Shown here piece after piece: positions 1,889 to 15,960 of a stretch of 64,000 nt of DNA (position 1 is its first letter; every line of letters starts with the position of its first letter). This stretch comes from a virus, in the IMG/VR virus record IMGVR_UViG_3300043436_003324; one strand, written 5' to 3'. Below the pieces are notes generated by a model. That model was not told the origin of the DNA. It did no database searches and saw nothing but the letters and a program-made list of their open reading frames with translations. Made by a program: the position numbers and the translations under genes.

Positions 1889-1919
1889 TTGACAAAACAA
1901 AACAAATGTCGTAACTTTG
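1889..1919 (+). promoter_or_regulatory. Bacteroidetes-type sigma70 promoter P1
   Basis: TTG(1889-91)-N20-TAACTTTG(1912-19) matches the TTG-N19-21-TAnnTTTG consensus. Confidence 0.8.
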
Positions 1920-1973
1920 TAAAACAAATTTGGAAAACGTCCAAATAAGAAATAAAAAAAGTTTAGAAAAAAT

Positions 1974-2004
1974 TTGGAAAATTCAAAAAGTATTCTTATC
2001 TTTG
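1974..2004 (+). promoter_or_regulatory. Bacteroidetes-type sigma70 promoter P2
   Basis: TTG(1974-76)-N20-TATCTTTG(1997-2004); lies 85 bp downstream of P1 and is followed by the same TAAAACAAAT. Confidence 0.8.
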
Positions 2005-2031
2005 TAAAACAAATCGGAAAAGTCCGATAAC

Positions 2032-2043
2032 GTTCTTTGAAAA
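2032..2043 (+). promoter_or_regulatory. boxA-like antitermination element
   Basis: GTTCTTTGAAAA directly after a leader hairpin (ATCGGA-AAAG-TCCGAT); resembles rrn boxA. Confidence 0.55.
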
Positions 2044-2044
2044 G

Positions 2045-2917
2045 TTAGATATTATCCGTTCAGGATTAAGTTAAGAACCTTCGGGTTTAAGAATGAAACT
2101 GATAAAGATATTGGGCCGTGTATAGTCCATAAAATAAACTACGAAAGTAGGATAAAGTGAACCCCCAAGTGTAACGGGTTTGCGTCTTAATGGTCTTCGG
2201 ATCATTGAGGTCGAGTACACAGGCGAGATACCATAAAATCTTTAGTACCGAGGCCAACGGTGTAGGGAAAGTGATTTTATGATGAGGTGATGTGGGTCAT
2301 CTTGTTGAGGAGGGAACTCTAATAGGAATAACTCGTAGGGATGATGCAAGAATCAATATTTCCAATGTTGTTATTGCGGGTCTCAGTACGATAGGGTACT
2401 TAAAACCGAAAGGTATGACAACAAACAGGTGGTGCTGACATTGTCCTTGATGAATCTCTACCAAGGGACTTATCTCGAAGTAATCTTGAAATATTGAAAT
2501 GGGGACATTTCACGAGGCAGTTTGGTATTTTGTTATTCAAAAGATAATGAAGCTTAAGACGGACCACTGCTTTGACCAATCCACGACACAAAAACTTTTA
2601 TGTTAATGAAGTAACATTTATAAACTATAAAGCAAAAGTGTCCGTCACGATATAACGGAAGTTACCCACCTATTCACTGGCAGTCAGTGGAACGTGATAA
2701 CCGCAAGTTTGACCGTATTTTTATGAAAAATCTCTAGGTCGTCGAAGACCGAATCAGGACGCAATCTTGAGGAGACAGGATTAGTAAGAGAGTAGTTATG
2801 TCGTCAAGGAGTGATTGGTCTAACCAATCGGTAATGAGTGTTACAGGACAAAATCCTGTGGATAAGAGTAGAACCAATAATGACTCGAAAGACACTTACA
2901 AAAACTGTAATCTCAGG
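2045..2917 (+). ncRNA. Large structured ncRNA of about 870 nt; GOLLD/ROOL-class candidate, boundaries approximate
   Basis: No credible ORF and GC-richer than its flanks. Dense hairpins with UUCG/GNRA loops: AACC-TTCG-GGTT 2076-87, CTAC-GAAA-GTAG 2139-50, 11-bp stem with TTCG loop 2185-2210, ACC-GAAA-GGT 2405-14; also GATTGGT-CTA-ACCAATC 2813-29 and ACAGGA-CAAAA-TCCTGT 2843-59. Promoters upstream and a terminator downstream. Family assignment not verified. Confidence 0.75.
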
Positions 2918-2957
2918 TTTTTATTTTTAGGTTAAATCTTATAAGAAAAAAATTAAT

Positions 2958-2988
2958 AGGGACGATGTGAATCGATCCCTTTTTTTTT
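2958..2988 (+). terminator. Intrinsic terminator after the large ncRNA
   Basis: AGGGACGAT-GTGA-ATCGATCCCT followed by a T run. Confidence 0.75.
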
Positions 2989-3045
2989 GTTTTTTTTTAT
3001 ATACTGATGTATTTATATTTAAAGATAAATAAATAATTTTACATT

Positions 3046-4107: not shown

Positions 4108-4518
4108 TGGTGGAGGTGCGGAGGCTCGAACTCCGGTCCATAATATCCTGTCAAACAAGGACTACACGTTTAGGTTAACATTTTCTAACGTTCCAAAATA
4201 TTCGATTTTTAACTTGATCAAAAACAAGGTTAGTTTGTTCTTCATTATCGTAAACTAACAACCAATAAACGACTCGATTTCGGGTTCAGTCGTATTCCAC
4301 CTTAAAGGACTTCTGTTGCTAGGTTATGTGTCCACCGACCCCCGTTTCCGTTAACTAATTAAGCTACAGTAACTTCAGAACCTCTTAGTAAACCAAGAGT
4401 TTCCATTTTCGATAAAACGTCGCCGATTGTTTTTGTGAATCAGTTTTTAAAGAGATTAATTCAGTCTCTACGTGCCCTTTATTCTCAGCCAATACCTGTC
4501 AAATCCAAAAACACCCCC
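4108..4518 (-). ncRNA. ssrA: tmRNA; tag peptide (A)GDVLSKMETLGLLRGSEVTVA*
   Basis: 5' GGGGGTGTTTTTGGATTTGAC and 3' GGAGTTCGAGCCTCCGCACCTCCACCA give an alanyl acceptor stem with G3:U and an encoded CCA. Tag frame runs 4424->4359, resuming at GGC after AAAAACAATC, with a hairpin over the tag. Confidence 0.95.
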
Positions 4519-5710: not shown

Positions 5711-6496
5711 ATGGAAAGAAATTACGAATTACTAAAAGAGGTGTTATCGGTACCCTCAAAAACATATCAAGAAGATTTATTGATACAATTTATCTGTGAT
5801 TGGTTAGATAAAAATAACATCACATATTATGTTGATGACTTATACAACATATATGCAACAAAACAAACTGATCAGGATATTGAATACTTTCCTTGTGTGG
5901 TCGCACATACTGATACTGTACATAATATTGACACAATAAATGTTAAAGAAGAGATGTTACCTGATGCTCAAGGTAATGTTAAACTATCTTTAAAGGCGTA
6001 TAATAATAACGGAGACCCAACAGGAATTGGCGGTGATGATAAATGTGGGGTTTATGGGTGTTTAGAACTACTAAAAGAATTACCTAACTTAAAAGCTGCT
6101 TTCTTTGTTTCTGAGGAAACAGGATGTAAGGGATCATTTAATGCGGATCCTAATTTTTTCACTAATGTTGGTTACGTTATACAATTTGATGCCCCCGAAA
6201 ATAATATGATTTCAGAATTTTTAATGAACAAACCAATGTTTAATAGAGACAGTGAATTCTTTAATGTTGGGGGTAGACTAATAACAGAACATTTTCCTGG
6301 GGATACAGAATACCATAGACACCCATACACGGATATATACCCATTAAATAAGAACTTTGGATTGTCCTGTTTCAATATCTCTATTGGGTACTACAATTAC
6401 CACACAAGAAACGAATACGTGGTTGTTGACGACACATACAATGGTATTAAGGTGGGTAAATTAATGATAGAGGAGTTAGGTAATAATAAACATTAA
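5711..6496 (+). CDS. M28/M20/M42-type zinc peptidase
   Basis: Metal-ligand motifs HTDTVH, GGDDKCG, EETG and a C-terminal YH. Confidence 0.85.
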   Translation: MERNYELLKEVLSVPSKTYQEDLLIQFICDWLDKNNITYYVDDLYNIYATKQTDQDIEYFPCVVAHTDTVHNIDTINVKEEMLPDAQGNVKLSLKAYNNNGDPTGIGGDDKCGVYGCLELLKELPNLKAAFFVSEETGCKGSFNADPNFFTNVGYVIQFDAPENNMISEFLMNKPMFNRDSEFFNVGGRLITEHFPGDTEYHRHPYTDIYPLNKNFGLSCFNISIGYYNYHTRNEYVVVDDTYNGIKVGKLMIEELGNNKH

Positions 6497-13554: not shown

Positions 13555-14596
13555 AAATCATATTTTAACTTTGTTAGAACACGGATTGTCATTTAACACT
13601 ATTAGTAATTTAAATGACTTACAAATTAAGGTATTATCCGAAAAATTTTCTAAAAAGGAAGAAAATAAAGAGGCTCAAGATATACAAACTAAAATAAGAA
13701 GATTTAGTTCTTCTGAAGTTTCTAACGCCAAAACAAAAGGAGAGTCATTACCAGGAGGAAGGGCGTTCAAATTAAATGCTGATGGTAGTGTTGATGTTAC
13801 GTTAGAAGGTGAAATGAGTGAGGATGATACGGTAGATTTTGTAAATGATCCTGACGCAACTGAAGATGGAATGGGGATGTTTGAATCTGAAATGAAAGAA
13901 AAGTTTGAGTCCAAATCACAACAAGGTTTATTTTGGTCGAAATGTAAAAATAGTACAGGAAAAACAAAAGAAAAATGGTGTAAAATGGCAAAAGAATTTT
14001 CAGACAGTACATCTAAAAAAGATTATAAAAAAATGCCAGATAAAAAACAACCCAAAAAAACGGTTAAAAAAACTAATGAAAATTTAGAAAGATTTTTAGA
14101 AGATAGAATTGTTAACATGTTGGATGAATATGTGAACCCAACGTTTACAAAAGGTCAAATGATTAATACAATATCTGAAAAAACAGAAAAATTTAATTCT
14201 ATGTTTTTGAAAACCCCAAAAAAAATGTCTATGTTTTCAAACGAATCTGGAATTGAAATGAAAAGTATGAAAAGGCCTATTGGTAGAATCTCTTCTTTAG
14301 GGGAAGACACAAAAGAAAAAGAAAGAACTAAGGAAAAAGAAAGAACTAAGGAAAAAGAAAGAAGAAAGGGTAACCCTTTTAAAGACCCTAATCCTGACGT
14401 AGAAGAAAAACCTAAAGCAAATACAAAAGAAAAAGAAAGAACTAAAGAAAAACCTGGTACAAAAACACCAACAAGAAGAAAAGGTAATCCGTTTAAGGAT
14501 CCTAATCCTGATGTTAAGGAAAATCCAAAAGCAAAAATGGAAAAACAACAAAGTGGTTTCATTGATGCAATAATGAACATATTAAATTTTAACTAA
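13544..14596 (+). CDS. Hypothetical protein with KEKERT and RRKGNPFKDPNPDV repeats
   Basis: Likely start at ATG 13544, overlapping the end of the previous gene. Confidence 0.75.
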   Translation: MNPKNHILTLLEHGLSFNTISNLNDLQIKVLSEKFSKKEENKEAQDIQTKIRRFSSSEVSNAKTKGESLPGGRAFKLNADGSVDVTLEGEMSEDDTVDFVNDPDATEDGMGMFESEMKEKFESKSQQGLFWSKCKNSTGKTKEKWCKMAKEFSDSTSKKDYKKMPDKKQPKKTVKKTNENLERFLEDRIVNMLDEYVNPTFTKGQMINTISEKTEKFNSMFLKTPKKMSMFSNESGIEMKSMKRPIGRISSLGEDTKEKERTKEKERTKEKERRKGNPFKDPNPDVEEKPKANTKEKERTKEKPGTKTPTRRKGNPFKDPNPDVKENPKAKMEKQQSGFIDAIMNILNFN

Positions 14597-15960
14597 TGGG
14601 ACATAAATATATTGAGAGTTTAGTGAGGAAAATCATAAACGAGGCTCCTGTTGATTATGGGGATTATCCAGAAAGAATGGACCCTAGAGTACAACAAAAG
14701 ATTGAGGATCCCGAAAGTATCTATGCAAAAAATAGAGGGTTTCAAGGAGGAGTATCTGATGTTGAGAGGTTATCAGGAGACAGATTCAAAGAGATTGTTG
14801 ATTACGTAAAAAGATATTATACCACTGAAAGAAATATAACAGATCCTTCGGTAATGGCCGCGATTCAAATGGAACAAATGTTGGCGGTTAGAGAAGTAAT
14901 GTCCAAAGAGCCAAGACATAGAGAAAAACTTAGGGACCTTGCGGTTGAAATTAAGGCAAAAGAGAGTGGGTGGATGCCTAATAACCTTACAATGGAAAAA
15001 GCATTAAGAGAAGGTCTTGTGAAAAAAAGAAAATCTAAGGATGGGGGAACCATTTATGAATTTGAATTGATGAATCTTTTAACTTTCCTTGGGGAACAAT
15101 CGATAGACCCAAAAATATTTCAAATGAAACCTAAAAAAAATGAAAAACTACCAATACCCGCAAACTTTTCATTTGACATTGATGAATTAACTCCAGAAGA
15201 AGAAAAACAATTGGAGATTGAAAAACGACACGTTATAAATGCATATGTGATGGGTAAGGCAAAAAGAGGTCAATACGCTTATCAGGCATATAAAGATAGA
15301 TTAGATGCTATAGACCCATCTTTATACGAATTGTATAATAAAATTATGGGAGCAAATGATTTAATGTATTTTACCAACCAACAACTAATTGAAATGTTAG
15401 GGGGGAATGCGGCAGGATCAGCAGGTAAAGCCAAACCAGAACAAAGCGATGAAGATGAGGATGATGACCAAAGTGGAGAAGAAATGGATAAAGATACTTG
15501 GTTTGCAAATGGATTAATCTTCCCAATTTTATTACATGAGGTTGATAAGGCTTTTAGTATGGTTACCACAAGACAACAGTGGAAAGGAATGGATCCTGAA
15601 ATGGCACAACAAGTTATTAGTCAAACTGACACAATGGAACATGAACCAATGAACTTCAGAATTGGTGCTGAATTAGCAAGAAAAATTAGAACAATGTTAC
15701 CTGAAGAATTAGTTTTAGATCCTGATGGTCGTATTTATATGCCGTTCTTTGAAAAGAACCTTTATGAGGTACCGGCGGAAAGATTCCTAAAACAAATAAT
15801 TGCAAATGTTGTTTCAAATAGAAAAGAAGATAACGCAAAAGCGGTTAAAGAATTTAAGGACATTTTTGAAAAGGCTAAAAAGGAATATCAGAGATTTAAA
15901 GGTGAAGATGATGAGGATGATGAATATAATTATGATAATGATGATGATTTAGCCTACTAA
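14596..15960 (+). CDS. Hypothetical protein with ESLVRKIINE leader
   Basis: 454-aa ORF whose start overlaps the previous stop. Confidence 0.8.
   Translation: MGHKYIESLVRKIINEAPVDYGDYPERMDPRVQQKIEDPESIYAKNRGFQGGVSDVERLSGDRFKEIVDYVKRYYTTERNITDPSVMAAIQMEQMLAVREVMSKEPRHREKLRDLAVEIKAKESGWMPNNLTMEKALREGLVKKRKSKDGGTIYEFELMNLLTFLGEQSIDPKIFQMKPKKNEKLPIPANFSFDIDELTPEEEKQLEIEKRHVINAYVMGKAKRGQYAYQAYKDRLDAIDPSLYELYNKIMGANDLMYFTNQQLIEMLGGNAAGSAGKAKPEQSDEDEDDDQSGEEMDKDTWFANGLIFPILLHEVDKAFSMVTTRQQWKGMDPEMAQQVISQTDTMEHEPMNFRIGAELARKIRTMLPEELVLDPDGRIYMPFFEKNLYEVPAERFLKQIIANVVSNRKEDNAKAVKEFKDIFEKAKKEYQRFKGEDDEDDEYNYDNDDDLAY

Follow-up and report, generated by a model that had tools for sequence, protein, structure and literature searches.

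The window, the whole 64,000-nucleotide stretch of viral DNA analyzed here, which comes from a large lake phage of Bacteroidota, carries near its beginning a full GOLLD RNA gene, headed by tandem promoters, two small hairpins and a boxA-like word and closed by an intrinsic terminator (Table 1). The score of its 3′ domain lies well above the Rfam gathering threshold of 150 bits, which identifies the RNA as a member of the same family (RF02032) as env-38, the GOLLD known to form a cage (PMC12286853). The 5′ domain begins with variable hairpins (2045 to 2100), followed by the conserved GOLLD core, which starts near GATAAAGATATTGGGCC (∼2102). Five relatives in IMG/VR were recovered through the upstream lysozyme gene (66 to 99% protein identity), and all of them keep the order lysozyme, GOLLD, tmRNA; most relatives also carry a GC stem and T-run equivalent to the terminator. 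A BLAST search of cultured-phage records returned two weak GOLLD pieces and nothing more. The phage tmRNA gene of the window, missed by ARAGORN, has its own Bacteroidota-type promoter (4579 to 4550, minus strand), with no boxA there. In the relative L006, a group I intron scoring 96 bits lies against the tmRNA gene or overlaps it (5745 to 5966 and 5942 to 6339, both minus strand), and the tmRNA, which scores just 56 bits, may be an intron-interrupted phage tmRNA.

Table 1. Features of the GOLLD locus, in window coordinates.
Feature	Position	Strand	Details
85-bp tandem duplication of two promoter-hairpin units	1868–2021 (1868–1936 vs 1953–2021)	+	71% identical, spacing 85
A-tract element AAAAAGT	1871–1877 (P1); 1956–1962 (P2)	+	18 nt before the −33 TTG
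Promoter P1, Bacteroidota type	1889–1919	+	−33 TTG(ACA) 1889–1894; −7 TAACTTTG 1912–1919
Hairpin 1, ATTTGGA-AAACG-TCCAAAT	1928–1946	+	7 bp, loop AAACG; MFE −5.8 kcal/mol, z −3.49
Promoter P2	1973–2004	+	−33 TTTG 1973–1976; −7 TATCTTTG 1997–2004
Hairpin 2, ATCGGA-AAAG-TCCGAT	2013–2028	+	6 bp, loop AAAG; MFE −6.8 kcal/mol
boxA GTTCTTTGAAAA	2032–2043 (core GTTCTTTGA 2032–2040)	+	Identical to the Bacteroidota rrn boxA consensus
GOLLD 5′ domain	2045–2512	+	Alignments A1 and A3, many compensatory pairs
GOLLD 3′ domain	2513–2919	+	Rfam RF02032, 287 bits, E 5.7e-81, model positions 1–416 of 416
Intrinsic terminator	2958–2998	+	GGGACGAU-GUGA-AUCG(A)UCCC, then U-tract; MFE −11.9 kcal/mol, z −2.3
Phage tmRNA	4108–4518	−	Rfam, 105 bits

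Related loci were collected by scanning with a conserved 29-nt pattern from the GOLLD 5′ core, which yielded 120 loci with 103 distinct leaders. A scan anchored on the 3′ domain provided an independent sample of 43 further loci lacking the 5′ anchor. For the host side, scanning bacterial genomes for a 5′ pattern of Bacteroidota 16S returned 120 rrn loci, 101 of them with leaders of at least 300 nt.

The initial annotation placed two host-type promoters 85 bp apart at the head of this unit, and both are present, within the tandem duplication; the hairpins and the boxA-like word likewise sit at the positions annotated. Each has 20 nt between the TTG of its −33 element and the TA of its −7 element, giving TTG-20 nt-TAnnTTTG, and the Bacteroidota promoter consensus, as defined in promoter studies of Bacteroides and Flavobacterium, reads TTG ... 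TAnnTTTG. Most relatives retain a promoter of the form ACAAAGTACTTGACA...TAACTTTG, and the P2 form is conserved in six loci (L002, L166, L219, L223, L235, L239). Across both strands of the window the full promoter pattern has 12 matches, against 7.5 expected; five lie on the plus strand, P1 and P2 among them, and the tmRNA promoter is another of the 12. The A-tract element AAAAAGT, located at most 40 nt upstream of the −33 element, accompanies 42% of GOLLD promoters and 23% of rrn promoters, compared with 1.7% expected, and both sets prefer the offset of −18 found at P1 and P2. Tandem arrangement is likewise common to both: 41/102 GOLLD leaders and 38/70 rrn leaders have two or more full promoter patterns no farther than 300 nt from boxA. 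Directly after each promoter comes TAAAACAAAT (1920 to 1929 for P1, 2005 to 2014 for P2), and then a hairpin, in both copies as originally annotated. This start region is where the two sets part: after the −7 element, GOLLD promoters have TAAAACAAAT, with 13% GC, whereas Bacteroidota rrn promoters have CAnCCC, with 55% GC.

Hairpin 1, which no boxA follows, lies close to the start of the P1 transcript. In L166, L223 and L239 the orthologous hairpin is ATTCGGA-AACG-TCCGAAT, which amounts to a double change, C-G to T-A. Compared with hairpin 1, hairpin 2 carries the compensatory T-A to C-G change noted in the initial annotation and has in addition lost one T-A pair from both sides. The gap between the end of hairpin 2 (2028) and the start of boxA (2032) is 3 to 4 nt, and 49/95 GOLLD leaders have a gap of 3 nt between hairpin and boxA. 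The stems themselves are not conserved in sequence: at least 12 unrelated stems occur (e.g. GGGT/ACCC, GTTACTC/GAGTAAC, AATCAC/GTGGTT), with loops that are mostly AANG. These hairpin types were tabulated, and the MAFFT alignment A2 has the two sides of an inserted A-U pair out of register. Among three lineages of relatives the stems likewise differ (TCGGA/TCCGA, TCAGG/CCTGA, TTCGGA/TCCGAA), and the proximal promoter, the hairpin and CGTTCTTTGAAAA are kept. Compared with shuffled sequences, the 35 nt before boxA fold with a median z of −2.56 in GOLLD leaders and −1.76 in rrn leaders, against ∼0 in control segments. In rrn leaders, too, hairpins 1 to 6 nt ahead of boxA are frequent, with AACG loops in Fibrella and Spirosoma.

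These inverted repeats overlap the likely start sites, and could accordingly be read as DNA operators of a dimeric repressor; alternatively, the hairpin and the T-rich stretch after it could form an attenuator limiting GOLLD expression, a reading in line with a consensus scan that lists 2013 to 2028 plus AACGTTCTTT as terminator-like. Both versions are highly improbable. Stems that change to unrelated sequences while pairing and AANG loop are kept argue for an RNA hairpin rather than for operator half-sites in DNA, the U-run is interrupted and stands 3 nt off the stem, and rrn leaders show this arrangement ahead of boxA as well. The name boxB suits hairpin 2 by position only, and E. coli rrn operons can do without boxB (PMC2724277).

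Two other arrangements occur between promoter and GOLLD. In about a fifth of GOLLD leaders the small hairpin is replaced by a conserved element, GATTTGAAAC...AGGTGATGAAAGATACTCGG...TTCAAATC, between promoter and boxA (L130, 3945 to 3990; L140, L164, L175, L180, L191, L199, L221 and L231; also after P1 of L006), for which an Rfam search gave no match. In L128 (LR745206.1, a 634-kb uncultured phage; 2330 to 2450) and in L155, a tRNA-Met, the hairpin GTTACTC-AACG-GAGTAAC and GTTCTTTGAAATATTG directly precede GOLLD; this is the context reported for the cryo-EM env-38 GOLLD, which lies downstream of a Met-tRNA.

The boxA word ends 1 nt before the GOLLD RNA, and 27 nt separate it from the −7 element of P2 upstream. 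It stands just past a promoter and ahead of a long untranslated RNA, and its placement on the nascent RNA follows from a start site deduced from the promoter consensus. Taken by itself, the 12-mer does not stand out significantly in the window (3 matches with at most one mismatch, against 2.2 expected); a second exact copy at 15744 falls inside an ORF of at least 60 aa (14596 to 15960), and the other strict matches to the motif (5068, 15744, 60231) occur at or under the chance rate. The significance of boxA therefore comes from its conserved placement in homologous loci. GTTCTTT[GA]A is found at the GOLLD 5′ edge, 38 to 149 nt upstream of the anchor, in 102 of the 103 distinct leaders and is one base off in the 103rd, although these loci share ancestry and the counts are not independent events; at the background rate in the same loci (0.058 per kb), 0.83 leaders would be expected to carry it. 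In the 3′-anchored sample, the word occurs at the expected distance in 32/43 loci. Among the 35 distinct 3′-anchored loci with enough upstream sequence, boxA and a Bacteroidota promoter are perfectly associated: 26 of the loci with such a promoter have the word and none lacks it, versus 0 and 9 for loci without one (Fisher p 1.4e-8). Conservation upstream of homologous RNAs, the check proposed for the original boxA call, is thus borne out in both samples. A chance resemblance in AT-rich DNA, compatible with the frequency of the 12-mer alone, is refuted by these counts and by the association with host-type promoters, and retains next to no probability.

The boxA-negative loci of the 3′-anchored sample are embedded in tRNA arrays. 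Upstream of one boxA-negative GOLLD (L276, IMG/VR), ARAGORN predicts a tRNA with the anticodon TTA, which reads the stop codon UAA and may be a suppressor tRNA of that phage. A search next to the GOLLD RNAs of Vibrio, Caulobacter, Ruegeria, Mycobacterium and Streptococcus phages gave no clear case of a host-type boxA, which limits the claim to the GOLLD lineages of Bacteroidota phages. In the Mycobacterium phage Bongo (L251), TGTTGGTTGAGAACTCA lies at ∼92 to 108, between tRNA-Trp and tmRNA at the head of a tmRNA/tRNA/GOLLD array, and may resemble the mycobacterial rrn boxA-boxC region. Seven loci (L132, L134, L159, L174, L181, L187, L189) have a second boxA word 250 to 440 nt upstream of the GOLLD anchor, which suggests multi-boxA RNA cassettes. 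In the supplementary ROOL alignment of PMC12286853 (file 5), four almost identical rows of human gut metagenomic origin start with UGUUCUUUGAU, so that ROOL RNAs of Bacteroidota phages may share the same boxA.

The likeness of GTTCTTTGAAAA to an rrn boxA, first proposed from the window alone, is upheld by the leaders of the host phylum. Its core, GTTCTTTGA, is the commonest 9-mer of Bacteroidota 16S leaders (39/101), and the motif family appears 84 to 260 nt before the anchor in 77 of the 101, with the lineage variants GTTCATTGA, GATCTTTGA and GTTCTTTAA; five rrn leaders (L043, L090, L107, L115, L119) contain the exact 12-mer of the GOLLD leader. The word recurs in the 16S-23S spacer of 40/46 operons and is found inside 16S in 0/46. 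Two rrn sites, in the 16S leader and before 23S, are the classical placement of boxA (PMC10250234, PMC13753749), and top rank in the 16S leader together with recurrence before 23S identifies the GTTCTTTGA word as the rrn boxA of the phylum. GOLLD and rrn sets also agree in fine detail: the G:A ratio at position 8 is 87:13 in the former and 88:12 in the latter, and an A-rich 5′ flank and a T at +14 are common to both. Within the Bacteroidota rrn loci (L007 to L126), Chitinophagaceae have GATCTTTGAAAG and many Flavobacteriaceae have GTTCATTGA; in the spacer, the copy almost invariably reads GTTC(A/T)TTGACATATTG.

The rRNA-operon-like architecture claimed for this leader is only partly retained. 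Tandem promoters, hairpin and boxA stand, whereas the leader-trailer helix, boxC and the GC-rich start region are missing. For the leader-trailer helix and boxC, the consensus fold of 21 full-length GOLLD units contains no supported pairing, and GOLLD trailers are variable and A-rich, without a conserved complement. What is conserved among the relatives is a unit of one or more host-type promoters, a 5′ hairpin, the host rrn boxA, GOLLD and an intrinsic terminator.

Since the word is invariant and always sits at the GOLLD 5′ edge, GTTCTTTGAA could instead serve the structure or assembly of this GOLLD clade, perhaps as a single-stranded 5′ tail that makes tertiary or inter-subunit contacts, and resemble boxA by coincidence. 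The loci that carry the word all come from related GOLLD lineages, so that shared descent could account for the co-occurrence. The fold, however, offers the word no partner. boxA is unpaired in the single-sequence MFE fold, and it is both single-stranded and conserved in primary sequence, being invariant in alignment A2. The consensus fold of the 21 diverse full-length units, in which 131/208 pairs show compensatory changes, gives the boxA columns just three pairs, to the terminator, none of them covarying. This fold replaced a search for boxA complements (7-nt runs, G-U allowed), which returned 40 matches in the RNA and 40 in shuffled controls. The spacing also runs against a structural role: from boxA to the core there is no insert in some relatives and more than 100 nt in others, and the distance to the anchor ranges from 38 to 149 nt, yet boxA stays 3 nt from the upstream hairpin, a fixed distance as in rrn leaders. 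The word is moreover the host rrn boxA, found at both canonical rrn sites, and it is missing from GOLLDs without Bacteroidota promoters despite their matching 3′ domains. Finally, the cryo-EM env-38 GOLLD is an 833-nt RNA with a 420-nt 5′ region that assembles into a 14-mer cage (PMC12286853), and by length arithmetic its residue 1 would fall near window position 2093, downstream of boxA. A structural element is on these grounds unlikely.

The preferred reading is an rrn-type boxA leader, and its closest counterpart is the rrn operon leader, which shares tandem promoters, a hairpin and then boxA after the proximal promoter, the boxA core UCUUU and a long untranslated structured RNA as cargo. 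The GOLLD leader differs from it in its phage cargo, its single boxA, the lack of boxC and leader-trailer helix, its AT-rich start and the intrinsic terminator at its end. In B. subtilis, rrn transcripts begin with a small 5′-terminal hairpin followed at once by the boxA AUGAUCUUUGAAA, which is bound by NusB (PMC13753749). The GOLLD leader likewise has a 5′-terminal hairpin, then a few bases, then a boxA of the ...UCUUUGAAA type; the B. subtilis leader belongs to another phylum and carries rRNA, and NusB binding has been shown there, while the GOLLD site is predicted. Outside rrn operons, boxA is found in the suhB 5′ UTR and in CRISPR arrays of gamma-proteobacteria (PMC5725501; cited in PMC13753749). 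In those cases, as proposed for GOLLD, it modifies polymerase on non-rRNA transcripts, long untranslated RNAs included; there it belongs to proteobacterial cellular genes and follows the consensus GYTCTTTAANA, whereas the GOLLD boxA heads a phage gene in Bacteroidota and has mostly G at position 8.

A phage precedent is lambda nut, which combines the order boxA-spacer-boxB with the phage protein N. Both lambda and, as proposed, the GOLLD phage would use host Nus factors through a boxA on their own transcript. The order is reversed in the GOLLD leader: the hairpin precedes boxA, as in rrn and unlike the lambda-type nut, and an RNA gene takes the place of downstream operons as cargo. We know of no N-like protein for the GOLLD leader.

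Taken together, positions 1868 to 2998 likely form a single non-coding transcription unit read by host RNA polymerase and, jointly with this, the GOLLD leader is likely an rrn-type boxA leader, a putative NusB-S10 loading site that by analogy would establish an antitermination complex on that polymerase. Two tandem host-type promoters, each with an A-tract element, would start transcripts headed by a small 5′ hairpin, and single-stranded GUUCUUUGAAAA, the Bacteroidota rrn boxA, would emerge just after the promoter-proximal one. As in rrn operons, boxA would load host NusB-S10 onto the nascent RNA, and NusB-S10, NusA and NusG would turn polymerase into an rrn-type antitermination complex. The E. 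coli rrn complex also takes SuhB and S4. So modified, polymerase would resist Rho-dependent termination along the ∼870-nt untranslated RNA and elongate faster, and it may aid co-transcriptional folding of GOLLD. Transcription would stop at the intrinsic terminator.

Parts of this scheme have direct parallels. In E. coli, boxA, which lies just after P2, is necessary and sufficient for the rrn antitermination complex (PMC10250234), and rrn antitermination acts on Rho-dependent terminators only (PMC2724277); since it spares intrinsic terminators, the one at the end of the unit fits. NusB and Rho genes are present in 5/5 complete Bacteroidota genomes sampled. The initial proposal that the phage recruits host Nus antitermination and folding machinery is thus supported by comparison, through the shared boxA word, its placement, the hairpin and the tandem promoters. 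Several points count against the model. Rho loading sites are typically C-rich and G-poor, and the GOLLD body, with 23% G and 16% C, is unlike typical Rho loading-site RNA. The leader-trailer helix and GC-rich start are missing, and GOLLDs in phages of other phyla show no adjacent boxA; those of Vibrio, Caulobacter, Ruegeria and Streptococcus phages indicate that GOLLD can be made with no boxA next to it. We know of no functional study of boxA in Bacteroidota. On the sequence comparisons as a whole, GOLLD is probably made by the termination-resistant rRNA transcription machinery of the host.

Identity with the host rrn signal and strong tandem promoters would also suit a different use, in which boxA acts mainly as a decoy and abundant GOLLD transcripts titrate NusB-S10 from host rrn operons, shutting them off; ribosome association of GOLLD in pull-downs has been mentioned (PMC12286853). 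This use is compatible with the antitermination model. As the main role it is decidedly unlikely: it presumes an abundant RNA that retains boxA when mature, and it has no need for the exact 5′-edge, post-hairpin position seen in rrn leaders. If boxA were kept on the mature RNA, each 14-mer cage would display up to 14 putative NusB-S10 sites and could act as a sponge or tether for the host rRNA-transcription and S10 machinery, a conjecture to which we give little weight. Were it true, host rRNA synthesis would be shut down or ribosomal components docked, and the leader would belong to the function of GOLLD beyond serving as an expression signal.

We found no paper joining GOLLD or ROOL with boxA, NusB or antitermination. 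The GOLLD structure paper mentions neither boxA nor antitermination, in its bioRxiv preprint or in the Nature version, and its supplementary GOLLD alignment covers the 3′ region only (PMC12286853); the boxA survey in PMC5725501 excluded non-coding RNAs. Nor did we find an earlier description of the Bacteroidota rrn boxA defined here. What the locus represents is probably a known mechanism, the rrn-type boxA leader, with a new cargo, GOLLD.

GOLLD is a giant phage RNA whose structure has been solved. The conserved promoter-hairpin-boxA leader implies that it is transcribed by host polymerase as an independent expression unit and, by analogy, that it would be treated like rRNA, with protection from Rho and possibly chaperoned folding. 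The discriminator of E. coli mediates growth-rate and stringent control; if the GC-rich start region does so in Bacteroidota, the AT-rich phage unit would escape it. The leader extends the use of boxA beyond rRNA, suhB and CRISPR arrays to phage non-coding RNAs.
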